Positions 2,773-22,215 of a DNA stretch of 39,680 bases are shown piece by piece. This stretch comes from Candidatus Omnitrophota bacterium (lineage in GTDB: Bacteria; NPL-UPA2; BS750m-G34), in assembly GCA_016783345.1 (NCBI GenBank), contig JADHWT010000001.1:1-39680 (forward strand), written 5' to 3'. The stretch's first letter is position 1, and the number at the start of each line of letters is the position of its first letter. The translations under genes and the position numbers were made by a program. The notes beneath the pieces were generated by a model. It searched no databases and had not been told where the DNA came from. It saw only the letters and a list, made by a program, of their open reading frames with translations.

Positions 2773-2801
2773 AAGTGTTAGCAAGAAAGGAGGAAAGGAG
2801 A

Positions 2802-3260
2802 ATGCGAGTAGGAATAATTGGTATAGTTGTAGTAGGGTTGGTTTTTTTAGGAAGTAGTTTTTGTCTGGCTAACGGGGGAGCCCCTGTTACAAAAGAGGTG
2901 ACCAAAGAAACGGTAGGCGAAGCCACCTCTGCGAAGCAAGGGGTAGGGACAACAGGTGCTACGGGAGGCGCTATTAAAAGTCCTGGTACGGCTACATTCC
3001 TGTCAGTCCTTTGCCCGGGACTCGGACAGATCTATAATGATGATAGTCTAATCAAGGTCCTTATTATGGGTGGTATAGAAGGTCTTTGCTGGGGTCTGGT
3101 TGGCGGAACAGATATGGAGGCATTAGGTATTTTTGGGCTGGCAATGGGAAGGGTTGTGAGCTCTGTAGACGCCTATTATACAGCTGTTGAAAAGAACAGA
3201 GGCCTCTCTCTTCAGATAGATAACGAAAAGGTGGTCGTAGCTATAAAGGGGGAATTTTAA
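2802..3260 (+). CDS. Small secreted/membrane protein with PGLGQIYN motif (paralogue of 21832-22215)
   Basis: 152 aa. Start moved from ORF-track 2775 to ATG 2802, with AAGGAGG at 2787-2793. It has an N-terminal hydrophobic signal/TM, a Gly/Thr-rich linker, LCPGLGQIYNDD, a second hydrophobic segment, VDAYY, and a C-terminal ...GEF. Resemblance to DUF5683-type proteins is from memory only. Confidence 0.7.
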   Translation: MRVGIIGIVVVGLVFLGSSFCLANGGAPVTKEVTKETVGEATSAKQGVGTTGATGGAIKSPGTATFLSVLCPGLGQIYNDDSLIKVLIMGGIEGLCWGLVGGTDMEALGIFGLAMGRVVSSVDAYYTAVEKNRGLSLQIDNEKVVVAIKGEF

Positions 3261-3485: not shown

Positions 3486-3626
3486 ATGGAAGCTTATTGT
3501 GTAAAATGTAAGGCAAAAAAAGAGATGTCTGAAGCAAAAGAAGTAACGATGAAAAACGGACGTAAGGCCATGAAAGGTAAATGCCCTGATTGCGGGACCG
3601 GAATGTACCGCATCCTCGGTAAATAA
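3486..3626 (+). CDS. 46-aa zinc-ribbon protein (DUF5679-like), absent from ORF track
   Basis: AGGAGG at 3476-3481 precedes ATG 3486. MEAYCVKCKAKKEMSEAKEVTMKNGRKAMKGKCPDCGTGMYRILGK has two CxxC pairs. Stop TAA at 3624-3626. Confidence 0.65.
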   Translation: MEAYCVKCKAKKEMSEAKEVTMKNGRKAMKGKCPDCGTGMYRILGK

Positions 3627-3676
3627 GACCGGTTATAAGTTATAAGTCGTAAGTTATAAGGAGAAAGGATATCTTT

Positions 3677-4258
3677 ATGGCTTACGACTTATTTTATTTT
3701 ATGATTTCTACAGTTGATTTTCGTAAAGGGTTGAGGATAAAGCTGGAAGGCGAAATTTACAGCATAATAAATTTCCAGCATGCCCGCACAGCCCAGCGCC
3801 GCGCATTTGTGCGGACCCGTTTAAAGAATCTAAAGACAGGCGCTGTTCTTGAGAAGACCTTTGCCGCAGGTGAAACATTTAAAGAGCCGGATTTTGAGGA
3901 AAAGAAAATGCAGTACCTGTATCAAAATGACGGCGAATATTATTTTATGGATACCGGGAGTTTTGAGCAGATTGGTATTCCGGAGAAAAGATTGGGCGGC
4001 GCGCATTGGTTTTTACACGAGGGCGGGGAGTACAAAATTTTATTTATTGAATCCGCACCTTTCAATGTGGAGCTGCCGGCAGCTGTAGTTTTAAAGGTTA
4101 CCTCTGTAGGACCCGGCCATAGAGGTGACAGCGTTACAAATCTTCTGAAAGAGGCAGTTTTAGAGACAGGTCTTGTCGTGAAAGTTCCTCTTTTTATCAA
4201 GGAAGGGGATAGAGTCAAAGTCGATACCCGCACCAATGAATATCTGGAGCGGGGTTAA
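3677..4258 (+). CDS. efp: Elongation factor P
   Basis: Gap-free similarity to bacterial EF-P (ISTVDFRKGL..., AFVRTRLKNLKTGA, MQYLY, VELP..., GDS, ETGL.VKVPLFI). ATG 3701 (MISTVDFRKGL) is an equally plausible start. The RBS AAGGAG sits at 3658-3663. Confidence 0.9.
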   Translation: MAYDLFYFMISTVDFRKGLRIKLEGEIYSIINFQHARTAQRRAFVRTRLKNLKTGAVLEKTFAAGETFKEPDFEEKKMQYLYQNDGEYYFMDTGSFEQIGIPEKRLGGAHWFLHEGGEYKILFIESAPFNVELPAAVVLKVTSVGPGHRGDSVTNLLKEAVLETGLVVKVPLFIKEGDRVKVDTRTNEYLERG

Positions 4259-8751: not shown

Positions 8752-8780
8752 TTGCCAAACATATTTCTATAGGGTACAAT
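8752..8780 (+). promoter_or_regulatory. Sigma70-type promoter for the nagB leader
   Basis: TTGCCA (8752-8757), 17-nt spacer, TACAAT (8775-8780). The predicted TSS is about 10 nt upstream of the conserved leader element. Confidence 0.5.
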
Positions 8781-8796
8781 ATGATAGTTATATGGT

Positions 8797-8918
8797 GTAT
8801 ATCCCTTGTCGCAGAAGATGTTGGGTAAAATTTCTTCGACTTTTTACCCAACGCGACTTCGGGATTAATTCCGACATACAAGTTATGTCACATAACTTGT
8901 GTCGTCATTAAAAGGAGG
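8797..8918 (+). promoter_or_regulatory. Conserved two-hairpin 5'-leader element, copy 1 (upstream of nagB)
   Basis: P1 is TCCC-TT-GTCGC (8802-8812) paired with GCGAC-TTC-GGGA (8853-8864), extended by an inserted hairpin GTTGGGTAAAA/TTTTACCCAAC (8820-8852). P2 is CGAC-AT-ACAAGTTATG-TCA-CATAACTTGT-GTCG (8872-8904). TCATTAAAAGGAGG follows. It is near-identical to 21733-21824, with compensated changes in P2. Confidence 0.65.
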
Positions 8919-8923
8919 ATGAA

Positions 8924-9703
8924 ATGCAGGTTCTAATTCGAGCAAATTATGAAGAGATGAGTAAAGAGGCAGCGAGATATGTCTCTTCGGAGATGAGGAA
9001 GAAGGTAAAATTCGTACTGGGGCTTGCCACAGGCAGCACCCCGTTAGGGCTTTATAAAGAACTCATCCGCATGCATAAGGAAGAGGGATTGGATTTCGAG
9101 AACGTCACTACCTTCAATCTCGATGAATACTACGGACTTTCCCCTACCCATGAGCAGAGTTATAGTTATTTTATGTGGGAAAATTTGTTTAAACATGTCA
9201 ATATTAAGAAAGAGAATGTCCATATCCCTGATGGCATGGCAAAGGACGTAGAAAAATTTTGCGAGGAATACGAACATATGATCAAAGAGGCCGGGGGGAT
9301 AGACCTGCAGGTCCTGGGTATTGGCAGTGACGGCCATATTGCTTTCAATGAGCCGCTTTCTTCTCTTGGTTCCAGGACGAGACTTAAGACATTGACTCAG
9401 CAGACAATAGAAGATAATGCAAGGTTTTTTGAAAACAAGGACGAAGTGCCCAGGTATGCTATTACCATGGGGGTTGGGACAGTTTTTGAGGCGCATAAGT
9501 GTATACTTCTGGCAAGCAGCCATAGCAAGGCAGACGTTATCGCTAAGGCTATAGAGGGTCCTGTAGCAGCCTATATTACTGCCTCTGCTATGCAGCTCCA
9601 TCGTGATACTATAGTCGTTCTCGACGAAGGGGCTGCGGCTGAATTAAAGCGTAAGGATTATTACAGATATGTTGATAAAATGGTTAAGGAATTTAATAAA
9701 TGA
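8924..9703 (+). CDS. nagB: Glucosamine-6-phosphate deaminase
   Basis: 259 aa. LGLATGSTP..LY, F.LDEY.GL and LGIG.DGHIAFNEP motifs are present. Confidence 0.92.
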   Translation: MQVLIRANYEEMSKEAARYVSSEMRKKVKFVLGLATGSTPLGLYKELIRMHKEEGLDFENVTTFNLDEYYGLSPTHEQSYSYFMWENLFKHVNIKKENVHIPDGMAKDVEKFCEEYEHMIKEAGGIDLQVLGIGSDGHIAFNEPLSSLGSRTRLKTLTQQTIEDNARFFENKDEVPRYAITMGVGTVFEAHKCILLASSHSKADVIAKAIEGPVAAYITASAMQLHRDTIVVLDEGAAAELKRKDYYRYVDKMVKEFNK

Positions 9704-19997: not shown

Positions 19998-21322
19998 AGG
20001 TAAGGGATGCTAAAGACGTAAGAAAAATTGTAAAAGAACTGGACGTGAAATTTATCCGCATCTGGTTTACAGACGTATTGGGATTCCTTAAAGGTCTTAC
20101 AATTACTGTAAGCGAGTTAGAAAGAGCCATGGAAGATGGAATGGGGTTTGACGGCTCTTCTATTGAGGGATTTGCCCGCATTGAAGAGAGTGATATGATT
20201 GCCAGACTTGACCCCAAAACTTTTCAGATTATGCCGTGGAAAGAAAACGGTCTTACAGTAGCGCGGCTTTTTGCCGATATCTTCAAGCCGGATGGTAAGC
20301 CATTTGCGGCTGACCCGCGCTATATACTTAAAAAGAACCTTGAACGTGCGAGTAAAATGGGCTACACCTACTATATTGGTCCGGAACTTGAGTATTTTTA
20401 TTTTACTGATAAACAATCCACAAAATTTCTGGATAGTGGAGGTTATTTTGATGTCACCACATTTGACGTAGCAAGATCATTGCGCAAGCAGACTGTTACT
20501 TGCCTGGAGTCTCTGGGAATTCAGGTGGAATACAGTCACCATGAAGTTGCGTCTTCTCAGCATGAAATTGATCTTAGATATAAGGATGCCATGACCATGG
20601 CTGACCAGGTTATGACTTATAGGTTTACAGTAAAAGAAGTAGCCCGATTAAATAATTGTTACGCTACCTTTATGCCAAAACCGGTCTTTGGAATAAATGG
20701 CAGCGGTATGCATACACATCAGTCTCTATTTAAAGGAAACAGGAATGCATTTTTTGACGCCAAAGATAAATATCATCTTTCCAGCGTGGGTAAAGGTTTT
20801 ATTGCAGGGATACTTGCTCACGCCCGTGAGATTACTTCTGTAACCAATCAGTGGGTTAATTCTTATAAGAGATTGGTTCCGGGATATGAAGCCCCTGTCT
20901 ATATCACCTGGGCCCAGAGGAATCGTTCTTCACTCGTAAGAGTGCCCATGTATAAGCCAGGAAAAGAACACGCTACACGCGTAGAATTCCGCAGTCCGGA
21001 TCCTGCCTGCAATCCATATCTTGCATTTTCTGCAATGCTTGCAGCCGGCCTTGAAGGCATAGAGAAAAAATATAAACTACCGGATCCTGTTCCGCACAAT
21101 ATTTTCGAGATGAGTGAAAAGGATAGGCAAAAACTTAATATAGAGAGTCTTCCAGAAGATCTTTGGGAAGCTATCCATCTTACGGAAAAAAGCAAGTTGC
21201 TTCAAAAGGCCTTAGGTGAGGAGCTCTTTGCATATTTCATCCGCAATAAAAAGATGGAGTGGGACGAATACAAAGGACAGATAAGCCAATACGAATTAGA
21301 TAAATATTTACCCATTCTTTAA
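19994..21322 (+). CDS. glnA: Glutamine synthetase type I
   Basis: 442 aa. FDGSSIEGF, GPELEYF, GSGMHTHQSL, SYKRLVPGYEAP, NRS.LVR.P and R.PD...NPYLA are present. The start overlaps the pabC stop (ATGA). Confidence 0.93.
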   Translation: MKVRDAKDVRKIVKELDVKFIRIWFTDVLGFLKGLTITVSELERAMEDGMGFDGSSIEGFARIEESDMIARLDPKTFQIMPWKENGLTVARLFADIFKPDGKPFAADPRYILKKNLERASKMGYTYYIGPELEYFYFTDKQSTKFLDSGGYFDVTTFDVARSLRKQTVTCLESLGIQVEYSHHEVASSQHEIDLRYKDAMTMADQVMTYRFTVKEVARLNNCYATFMPKPVFGINGSGMHTHQSLFKGNRNAFFDAKDKYHLSSVGKGFIAGILAHAREITSVTNQWVNSYKRLVPGYEAPVYITWAQRNRSSLVRVPMYKPGKEHATRVEFRSPDPACNPYLAFSAMLAAGLEGIEKKYKLPDPVPHNIFEMSEKDRQKLNIESLPEDLWEAIHLTEKSKLLQKALGEELFAYFIRNKKMEWDEYKGQISQYELDKYLPIL

Positions 21323-21391
21323 TGAGCACGTGGCTTATGTCTGGCATAAGTCACAGGTGCGAATTATGAAACGATTTTCTTATTGACAAAA

Positions 21392-21732: not shown

Positions 21733-21824
21733 GTATGTCCCTTGTCGCAGAAGATGTTGCGACTTCGGGATTAATTCGAGCATACACTTTATGAAACATA
21801 AAGTGTGCTCTCATTAAAAGGAGG
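21733..21824 (+). promoter_or_regulatory. Conserved two-hairpin 5'-leader element, copy 2 (upstream of the PGVGQYYN membrane protein)
   Basis: P1 is TCCC-TT-GTCGC (21738-21748), loop AGAAGATGTT, then GCGAC-TTC-GGGA (21759-21770). P2 is GAGC-AT-ACACTTTATG-AAA-CATAAAGTGT-GCTC (21778-21810). TCATTAAAAGGAGG follows. Confidence 0.65.
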
Positions 21825-21831
21825 TGGAAAA

Positions 21832-22215
21832 GTGAGAAAGTTAGTAGTTATTTTAGCGGTTGTTCTTCTTTTAGGTTTTGCCCAGGATGTCCTGGCTGAC
21901 GGTGCGGGATGGGTTCCTCCAGCTGGAGAGAAGGATCCGAATACTGCACTGGTCCTTTCAGCTCTCCTCCCCGGAGTGGGTCAATACTATAATGACCAGC
22001 TGTATTATAAAGGTATAGCTTTTGGGCTGGCGGAAGCATTAGGATGGGTAATTGTAGGCGCAACTTCTGACGAGTGGTTTGGTTTTACTATAATTTGCGT
22101 TAACCATATAGCAAGCGCAGTTGACGCATATGTCCAGGCTGGCAGGGTCAATCAGGGAGTAAGTCTCAATATAACACCTGAGGGTCCGGTCTTAGCCTAT
22201 AGCCATAGTTTCTAA
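21832..22215 (+). CDS. Small secreted/membrane protein with PGVGQYYN motif (paralogue of 2802-3260)
   Basis: 127 aa. GTG 21832 follows AAAAGGAGGTGG. It has a signal-like N-terminus, LLPGVGQYYNDQ, a hydrophobic segment, VDAYV, and a C-terminal ...HSF. Confidence 0.7.
   Translation: MRKLVVILAVVLLLGFAQDVLADGAGWVPPAGEKDPNTALVLSALLPGVGQYYNDQLYYKGIAFGLAEALGWVIVGATSDEWFGFTIICVNHIASAVDAYVQAGRVNQGVSLNITPEGPVLAYSHSF

Follow-up and report, generated by a model that had tools for sequence, protein, structure and literature searches.

Among the described systems, the closest to the element studied here are dispersed structured repeats and reused upstream regions of bacteria. The REP/BIME/REPIN families of Pseudomonas and Enterobacteria, which are mobilized by RAYT enzymes, are built of short extragenic palindromic units occurring as singlets, tandem mosaics and inverted doublets around a hairpin-forming spacer. 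Repeats of the REP type share transcripts with the genes beside them and can influence how stable the mRNA is (PMC3184786). The Correia elements of Neisseria (CREE/NEMIS), MITEs of ~100–150 bp, lie beside many unrelated genes, are polymorphic between strains and are co-transcribed, and their hairpins can be bound or cut by RNase III, with the expression of the adjacent gene altered (PMC2649163). The MIRU repeats of mycobacteria are oriented, 40–100 bp long and located in the intergenic regions of operons, with ends overlapping those of the flanking genes (PMC3184786), and the putative mobile promoters are highly similar upstream regions found before non-homologous genes, both within and between genomes (PMC3575422).

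We analysed a stretch of 39,680 nt (hereafter the window), an entire contig from a MAG of Candidatus Omnitrophica. The genomes of Omnitrophota, a phylum of uncultivated bacteria, are compact. A sequence-only reading of the window had proposed a novel cis-regulatory RNA upstream of nagB. Our analyses suggest, with a probability of roughly 0.65, that this leader is a member of a REP/REPIN/MITE-like family of structured intergenic repeats, widespread in Omnitrophota, that acts as a co-transcribed portable leader. The family is previously undescribed: no interspersed repeat family of Omnitrophota was found in the literature searched, a search with the literal element sequence returned irrelevant matches only, and one for Omnitrophica RNA motifs gave nothing relevant.

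As with REP/BIME/REPIN, the element is a short extragenic palindromic unit that occurs as singlets, tandem mosaics and inverted doublets around a hairpin-forming spacer. However, it has no sequence similarity to REP, is longer (48–75 compared with ~35 nt) and AT-richer, and lies mostly 5′ of genes at the SD (Shine–Dalgarno sequence) or start codon, whereas REP sits after genes; one of its subfamilies carries an SD, and a RAYT link is known for REP only. Defined terminal inverted repeats, a TA duplication and the ability to create promoters characterize Correia elements, whereas the present element has no internal promoter and no consistent duplication, and its outward feature is an SD. Some copies fill the entire space between stop codon and start codon in a MIRU-like manner; the small ORFs of MIRU are thought to couple translation, whereas a mini-ORF in the P1 hairpin of the element is not conserved. 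In contrast with the mobile promoters, what is reused here is a structured leader with its SD, lying 3′ of a promoter that is not itself reused. Stable hairpins upstream of an unpaired SD are also found in ompA-type 5′ stabilizer hairpins and synthetic RBS (ribosome-binding site) insulators, but the analogy is functional only, as these are single-gene features and the present element is a dispersed repeat.

Copies of the element in the window

Alignment along the entire element showed that copy 1 (8797–8918) and copy 2 (21733–21824) have ~86 nt in common, in keeping with the ~90 nt noticed earlier. Two blocks are conserved, a 22-mer and a 19-mer, and each has exactly two matches in the window, compared with shuffle expectations of 0.00 and 0.04 respectively. 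Both copies terminate in the same RBS, TCATTAAAAGGAGG, and their P1 hairpins (TCCC-TT-GTCGC / GCGAC-TTC-GGGA) are 100% identical despite unrelated flanks, both as had been described. The insertion noted in the P1 loop of copy 1 does form an 11-bp helix, although it is 30 nt long (8823–8852) and not 32 nt. The account given of P2 was also correct: the ten positions at which the two sequences differ make up five compensated base pairs, and the AT bulge is retained (Table 1). Both folds were much more stable than those of shuffled sequences, at −45.6 kcal/mol (z=−4.9) for copy 1 and −32.2 kcal/mol (z=−4.0) for copy 2.

A third copy, consisting of P2 only, is antisense to glnA and starts directly 3′ of the glnA stop codon. 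It scored 53.7 bits with covariance model R2 (the P2 model) and 40.4 bits with model R1, with which copy 2 scored 93.2 bits. With the filters off, the covariance models detected just copies 1–3 in the window, and no inverted doublet was found inside it.

Table 1. Positions of the three element copies and of the nagB promoter in the window
Feature	Position	Strand	Sequence and remarks
nagB σ70-like promoter	8752–8780	+	TTGCCA-17-TACAAT; promoter scan, 10/12 matches
Copy 1, hairpin P1	8802–8864	+	P1a TCCC 8802–8805/GGGA 8861–8864
Copy 1, P1b	8808–8812/8853–8857	+	GTCGC/GCGAC; internal loops TT, TTC
Copy 1, optional stem extension P1c	8820–8852	+	GTTGGGTAAAA / TTTTACCCAAC, loop TTTCTTCGACT; 30-nt indel 8823–8852
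Copy 1, linker	8865–8871	+	TTAATTC; pairs with tail
Copy 1, hairpin P2, type 1	8872–8904	+	CGAC-AT-ACAAGTTATG-tca-CATAACTTGT-GTCG
Copy 1, tail and consensus SD	8905–8918	+	TCATTAAAAGGAGG; nagB ATG at 8924
Copy 2, hairpin P1 without P1c	21738–21770	+	TCCC TT GTCGC AGAAGATGTT GCGAC TTC GGGA
Copy 2, linker, P2 type 2, tail and SD	21771–21824	+	DUF5683 gene, GTG start at 21832
Copy 2, P2 type 2	21778–21810	+	GAGC-AT-ACACTTTATG-aaa-CATAAAGTGT-GCTC
Copy 3, P2 only	21318–21367	−	ATAATTC GCAC CT GTGACTTATG ccaga CATAAGCCAC GTGC TCATTAAA

The gene downstream of copy 1 encodes glucosamine-6-phosphate deaminase (nagB), and that downstream of copy 2 a DUF5683 membrane protein; copy 2 is flanked by a LysM gene and the DUF5683 gene and has no promoter of its own. 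Two DUF5683 paralogues are present in the window (2775–3260 and 21832–22215), and the element precedes the second one only. The promoter reported upstream of copy 1 was recovered by the promoter scan and is kept in the relatives L001 and L002 and also in L004, where the element is missing; it is thus conserved independently of the element. Since nagB and mreB each have a promoter immediately 5′ of the element, it falls inside the 5′ UTR of both genes, for nagB as the sequence-only reading had it.

An Rfam scan of the window brought three tRNAs to the gathering threshold and none of the element copies, and permissive Rfam scans of copies 1 and 2 gave best E-values of 0.34–5, to unrelated miRNA and sRNA models. 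A known RNA family was ruled out on these grounds, and the earlier statement that no known riboswitch class matches is consistent with the best E-value of 0.34. No match to copy 1 was obtained by blastn in collections of plasmid and phage sequences.

Several simpler roles were considered and rejected. An internal promoter or leaderless start was discarded, as the promoter scan detected no σ70-like site inside copy 1 or 2 and, by eye, no suitably spaced −10 box upstream of ATGs without an SD in relatives. No terminator-like site was found at copies 1 and 2, and an intrinsic terminator role for the antisense copy 3 after glnA was dismissed because its stem has no adjoining U-tract. A leader peptide (ATG TTG ... 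CGA CTT CGG GAT TAA in P1) was rejected because an SD is lacking and other lineages do not have the ORF. This mini-ORF is located at 8817–8867 and 21753–21773, and the 30-nt P1c indel keeps its frame.

As for the SD, AAGGAGG precedes 3 of the 38 genes in the window, and TTAAAAGGAG occurs in the window at two element copies only. In other genomes, the same 13–14-mer SD sequence follows the element at csp, clpC, L008, L012 and mreB, and it is sometimes extended to AAAGGAGGTGAT, which we take to be the full complement of the 16S rRNA 3′ end; the perfect anti-SD complement AAAGGAGGTGA(T) is carried in L006 and L012. From this recurrence, the SD seems to belong to the repeat unit in the subfamily of the window.

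Elsewhere in the window (3642–3692), the SD and ATG (3677) of the next gene lie between the arms of a 21-nt inverted repeat, ATAAGTCGTAAGTTATAAGGA / TCTTTATGGCTTACGACTTAT, which is possibly a translational hairpin. The gene starting at 3677 has an EF-P-like N-terminus by eye, and TTATAAG direct repeats precede the inverted repeat.

Covariation and turnover among relatives

Relatives of the nagB locus were retrieved as orthologous loci via the NagB protein. A genome scan with the 19-mer found the element in two further Omnitrophota MAGs, 5′ of genes for a cold-shock protein, a ClpC-like protein and a small secreted protein, with three exact matches in MAG CSMAG_2088. A metagenome scan with the pattern TTCGGGATTAATTCNNNCATAC, in which both stems were left free, gave 15 true loci (~11 distinct) and five chance loci. 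Every named homologue of the flanking proteins was from Omnitrophica/Omnitrophota.

We aligned 18 full elements on the structure proposed in the sequence-only reading, and 95.6% of the cells paired, compared with 29–44% in the slid-partner control, with ten pairs changing on both sides. For 20 P2 modules (alignment A3, which includes copies detected solely by the covariance model), 96.6% of the cells paired and 13 pairs changed on both sides, linker/tail helix included, as did 11 of the 14 P2 pairs; slid-partner controls across the element and P2 alignments gave 27–44%. These results indicate that the hairpins are real and under selection, and the covariation first seen in two copies is therefore genuine with 20-odd relatives (96–97% of cells pairing, 10–13 double-sided pair changes). 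Recurrence, folding and covariation together show that the element is real, conserved and structured, as had been claimed. Compensatory changes are, however, common in REPIN hairpins (PMC3116915), and covariation alone is thus no sign of a regulatory RNA. The mismatches in the stems also had no RNA-strand signature: G·U pairs were not in excess of A·C pairs but about equally frequent, at 4–5 each, which are small numbers.

P1b appears in relatives as GUCGC/GCGAC, GCUU/AAGC, GCCU/AGGC, GCGU/ACGC and GUUU/AAAC, and the linker UUAAU, which pairs with the tail AUUAA, covaries with it (UAAGUUC/UCACUUA and UAAAUUC/UCAUUUA). The P2 core ..UUA../..UAA.. is invariant. P1c is present in copy 1, L002, L006 and L008, with a compensated change (GAGTAAAA/TTTTACTC) in L006, and absent from copy 2, L001, L009, L030 and L151. 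P2 type 1 is also found 5′ of fabZ in L030. The P2 model gave no match in 671 kb of control DNA (unrelated DNA from a 14-mer scan of viral contigs, in which the 14-mer matches were due to chance) and ~30 in ~320 kb of Omnitrophota loci. The sense strand scored ~64 bits and the antisense strand 20 bits, so that the orientation calls are reliable.

Comparison of orthologous loci revealed presence/absence polymorphism between close relatives at five loci. The nagB leader of one relative (88% NagB identity) contains the element but lacks the 30-nt stem; that of another (86%) includes the stem and shows a U·G pair in P1a. L004 (83% NagB identity), by contrast, has none: its leader is an unrelated 51 nt, with promoter and pta-nagB synteny unchanged. 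The site of copy 2 is filled in relatives at 96% and 86% GlnA identity, with a third P2 type in the latter; L151 and L154 carry the orthologous copy, which L152 (87% GlnA identity) lacks. Copy 3 is found only in the window, being absent from L151, L152 and L154, with a clean 54-nt indel compared with L154. Between L015 and L028, which are near-identical contigs, clean indels of 102 nt (one element) and ~190 nt (an inverted doublet) were observed. The orthologous pilB site of L161 (86% PilB identity) is occupied by a doublet whose P1 is entirely different.

Copies in any one genome are near-identical, and two P2 subtypes are each shared by several loci and by several genomes. Together with the identity of P1 between copies 1 and 2, this recurrence can be read, as far as the sequences go, as concerted or recent spread, which would favour the repeat reading.

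Placement at start sites and the question of function

The element lies 5′ of at least 19 functionally unrelated genes. They include nagB, csp, clpC, pth, fabZ, purE, mreB, pilB and the V-ATPase c subunit gene, and the encoded families are Glucosamine_iso, DUF5683, CSD, Clp_N/AAA, Pept_tRNA_hydro, FMN_bind, T2SSG (T2SS pseudopilin), ATP-synt_C, tRNA_bind, AIRC (PurE), FabA (FabZ), T2SSE (PilB-like), Gln-synt (GlnA-2), MreB and GGDEF. At 19 independent loci the P2 end faces and abuts the start site, and there are eight other placements, five of which are the outer arms of doublets. The spacing to the start site is near-fixed, with an SD at 7–10 nt or, where there is no SD, an ATG at exactly 7 nt. 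The latter arrangement was found in another Omnitrophota lineage, in which many genes are SD-less; there, the ATG lies exactly 7 nt past the P2 foot at pth, an FMN_bind gene, pilB and L024. Other contexts comprise copies antisense after stop codons, beside a tRNA gene and upstream of a promoter. In L029 (756–949) the element tail abuts a tRNA-Gly gene on the opposite strand, which indicates that not every copy is beside a protein start.

A zinc-ribbon-like small protein (MEAYCVKCKAKKEM...) is encoded at 3487–3626 of the window behind an ordinary TAAGGAGG leader, and its homologue in L012/L019 has the element upstream.

A nagB-linked, riboswitch-like sensor is not supported by these data. A riboswitch-like or thermosensing cis-regulatory RNA that responds to GlcN6P, another metabolite or temperature, and controls nagB and other genes, would account for the two-domain structure with its conserved internal loops and covariation, the 5′ UTR position at nagB and the lack of a known-family match. 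The 5′ UCCCUU could, moreover, in principle pair either with GGGA or with the SD, the latter as in the MFE fold of copy 1. However, the element is not nagB-specific: the amino-sugar genes are represented by nagB alone, the others belonging to cold shock, proteolysis, translation, lipid, purine, cell shape and pili, and the orthologous nagB leader of L004 does without it. P1, the putative aptamer half, is swapped for unrelated hairpins in relatives, partial and inverted units occur, and copies turn over at orthologous sites.

Nor does the sensor have a platform to act through, since no terminator was found at copies 1 and 2 and no consistent SD sequestration by the element in the seven leaders folded. 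The mean unpaired probability of the SD was 0.6–0.7 in five of the seven leaders, 0.2 in L019 and 0.04 in copy 2; no conserved element pairing was responsible for the two low values, the SD of copy 2 pairing with the coding sequence. The anti-SD switch (5′ UCCCUU against the SD) was rejected, as it appeared solely in the MFE fold of copy 1 and is impossible in SD-less lineages. We therefore consider a sensor of any of these kinds highly improbable. Dispersed hairpin repeats give the same signal, and thus covariation and a 5′ UTR position are insufficient for calling a riboswitch.

A function selected at the RNA level would likewise be compatible with the near-fixed spacing and the deeply conserved unpaired nucleotides. 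On this alternative, the element is a post-transcriptional module that has been selected and spread for shared control of translation or stability, as an operator for a global RNA-binding protein or RNase or as a ribosome-recruiting or standby structure, with its repeat behaviour secondary. The orientation bias, the exact 7-nt distance at four independent SD-less genes, the perfect anti-SD complement in two of the leaders and the invariant nucleotides in the P2 stem and linker are consistent with this, as is the pilB locus, where three relatives have retained the start-proximal arm but differ in the other arms. On the other hand, the genes form no coherent set, orthologous sites have lost the element with no visible replacement, and copies lie antisense after stops, beside a tRNA gene and upstream of a promoter. 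In addition, G·U is not in excess of A·C, and the accessibility of the SD is not systematically altered by the element. Thus selection as the primary cause of the spread appears unlikely to us, yet it has a real chance of being right.

A bolder proposal, which we hold to be decidedly unlikely, is that the element is a phylum-wide mobile translation-initiation cassette recognized by ribosomes or by a dedicated RNA-binding protein. Genes would obtain from it either a perfect SD or, in lineages poor in SDs, a hairpin docked exactly 7 nt in front of the AUG in place of the SD helix on the 30S platform. If this were true, relocation of a single RNA module would be the means by which Omnitrophota re-wire how arbitrary genes are translated.

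In the reading that we prefer, a mobile repeat family, the element would be co-transcribed at nagB and the DUF5683 gene, giving a leader in which a strong SD lies exposed behind two stable hairpins. Such a leader would be at most constitutive, acting as a 5′ hairpin stabilizer, an RBS insulator or a processing site, with no ligand switch. What is unusual in this repeat is that it ends in a consensus RBS or abuts the start codon at a fixed distance, and it may for this reason set the translation or stability of many housekeeping genes.

Repeat architectures and possible mobilization

The basic module of the repeat family is P2, a palindromic unit of 48–75 nt joined to a variable spacer hairpin, P1. 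It is made up of a linker UUAAUUC, a 4-bp GC-rich stem, a bulge of at least 2 nt, a 10-bp stem that holds the conserved core A-C-A-N-N-U-U-A-Y-G, and a tail UCAUUA. The module is found in the form of singlets (P1+P2, the form of copies 1 and 2), P2-only units, head-to-tail arrays and inverted doublets around one P1, and gain, loss and exchange of copies are rapid among close relatives. Conservation of the hairpins would probably reflect a mobilizing or binding protein that recognizes hairpins, as REP hairpins are recognized by RAYT transposases.

Inverted doublets around a central palindrome were found in L015 (4184–4368), L158 (13461–13690) and L161 (764–925 and 11713–11894), and their P2 arms are inverted but differ in sequence. 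Head-to-tail arrays are present in L007 and L013, and P2-only units in the window, L161 and L028. The intergenic units numbered three in the 39.7-kb window, at least five in L015 (6.2 kb) and five in L161 (17.8 kb), a density of ~1 per 3–13 kb where the element is present, calculated on contigs. The sequence-only reading had itself named a REP or MITE element, with many copies in random orientation and context, as the outcome that would speak against a regulatory RNA, and this is largely what emerged: the contexts are varied and the copies form repeat units, although their orientation is non-random (19 compared with 8). The two covariance models, R1 and R2, allow the family to be annotated, and their use would prevent miscalls as ORFs or novel riboswitches in MAGs.

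The indel junctions disagree with one another. TCA flanks one indel, the others are without duplication, and no consistent target-site duplication was found in the filled/empty alignments. A TAA|TGA-P2 junction, as read on the complementary strand, was seen repeatedly, both at stop codons and 5′ of start sites. This junction would be expected if the element were a non-autonomous derivative of an IS200/IS605-type single-strand transposon (PATE-like), with P1 and P2 as subterminal hairpins on one strand, insertion beside a TAA/TTAA-type target and the linker as a guide pairing with the flank. Both hairpins do lie on one strand, the linker and tail covary, the empty site in the L015e/L028 comparison already has TCACTTA, complementary to the linker, and Y1 transposase genes exist in the phylum. 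However, P1 and P2 are dissimilar, whereas the end hairpins of the IS608 type resemble each other; the guide would be placed on the unusual side of the hairpin, TCA is lacking from the left junction of one indel, and no partner transposase was found. Furthermore, the choice of target would not by itself account for an SD that apparently moves together with the element. Taken together, these points make a single-strand transposon derivative very doubtful.

An integron attC site was rejected as well: the flanking genes are syntenic core genes, and the ends of the element are unlike the conserved attC ends R″ and R′. No transposase or RAYT gene was found in the window, and none among the loci examined could be linked to the repeat family. 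In the Omnitrophota relative L159 (4380–5000), a gene for a 158-residue Y1_Tnp protein (PF01797) has inverted-repeat flanks of ~40 nt, AGGGACGGTTCTCAA...TAAAGTGTCCC. The arrangement is RAYT/IS200-like but belongs to another repeat family, R1 and R2 having no match there, and an 8-mer, ACACTTTA, common to these flanks and the element is probably due to chance.

A long A-rich palindrome, unrelated to the element, lies in L161 (6090–6200) between FtsW/RodA-family and radical-SAM genes. In L007 (7146–7369, minus strand), two tandem units and a bacterial SD lie between the genes for the V-ATPase I and c subunits; this contig, which the 19-mer genome scan also picked up, was deposited as part of a Methanosarcinales archaeon MAG and is probably mis-binned. 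In L013 (8370–8615), three P2-type and two P1 hairpins are arranged head-to-tail and fill the space before pth. This array includes a P2x subtype (GCAC TT ATCCGCC/GGCGGAT GTGC) that was missed by model R2, and the same subtype begins the orthologue of copy 2 in L154.
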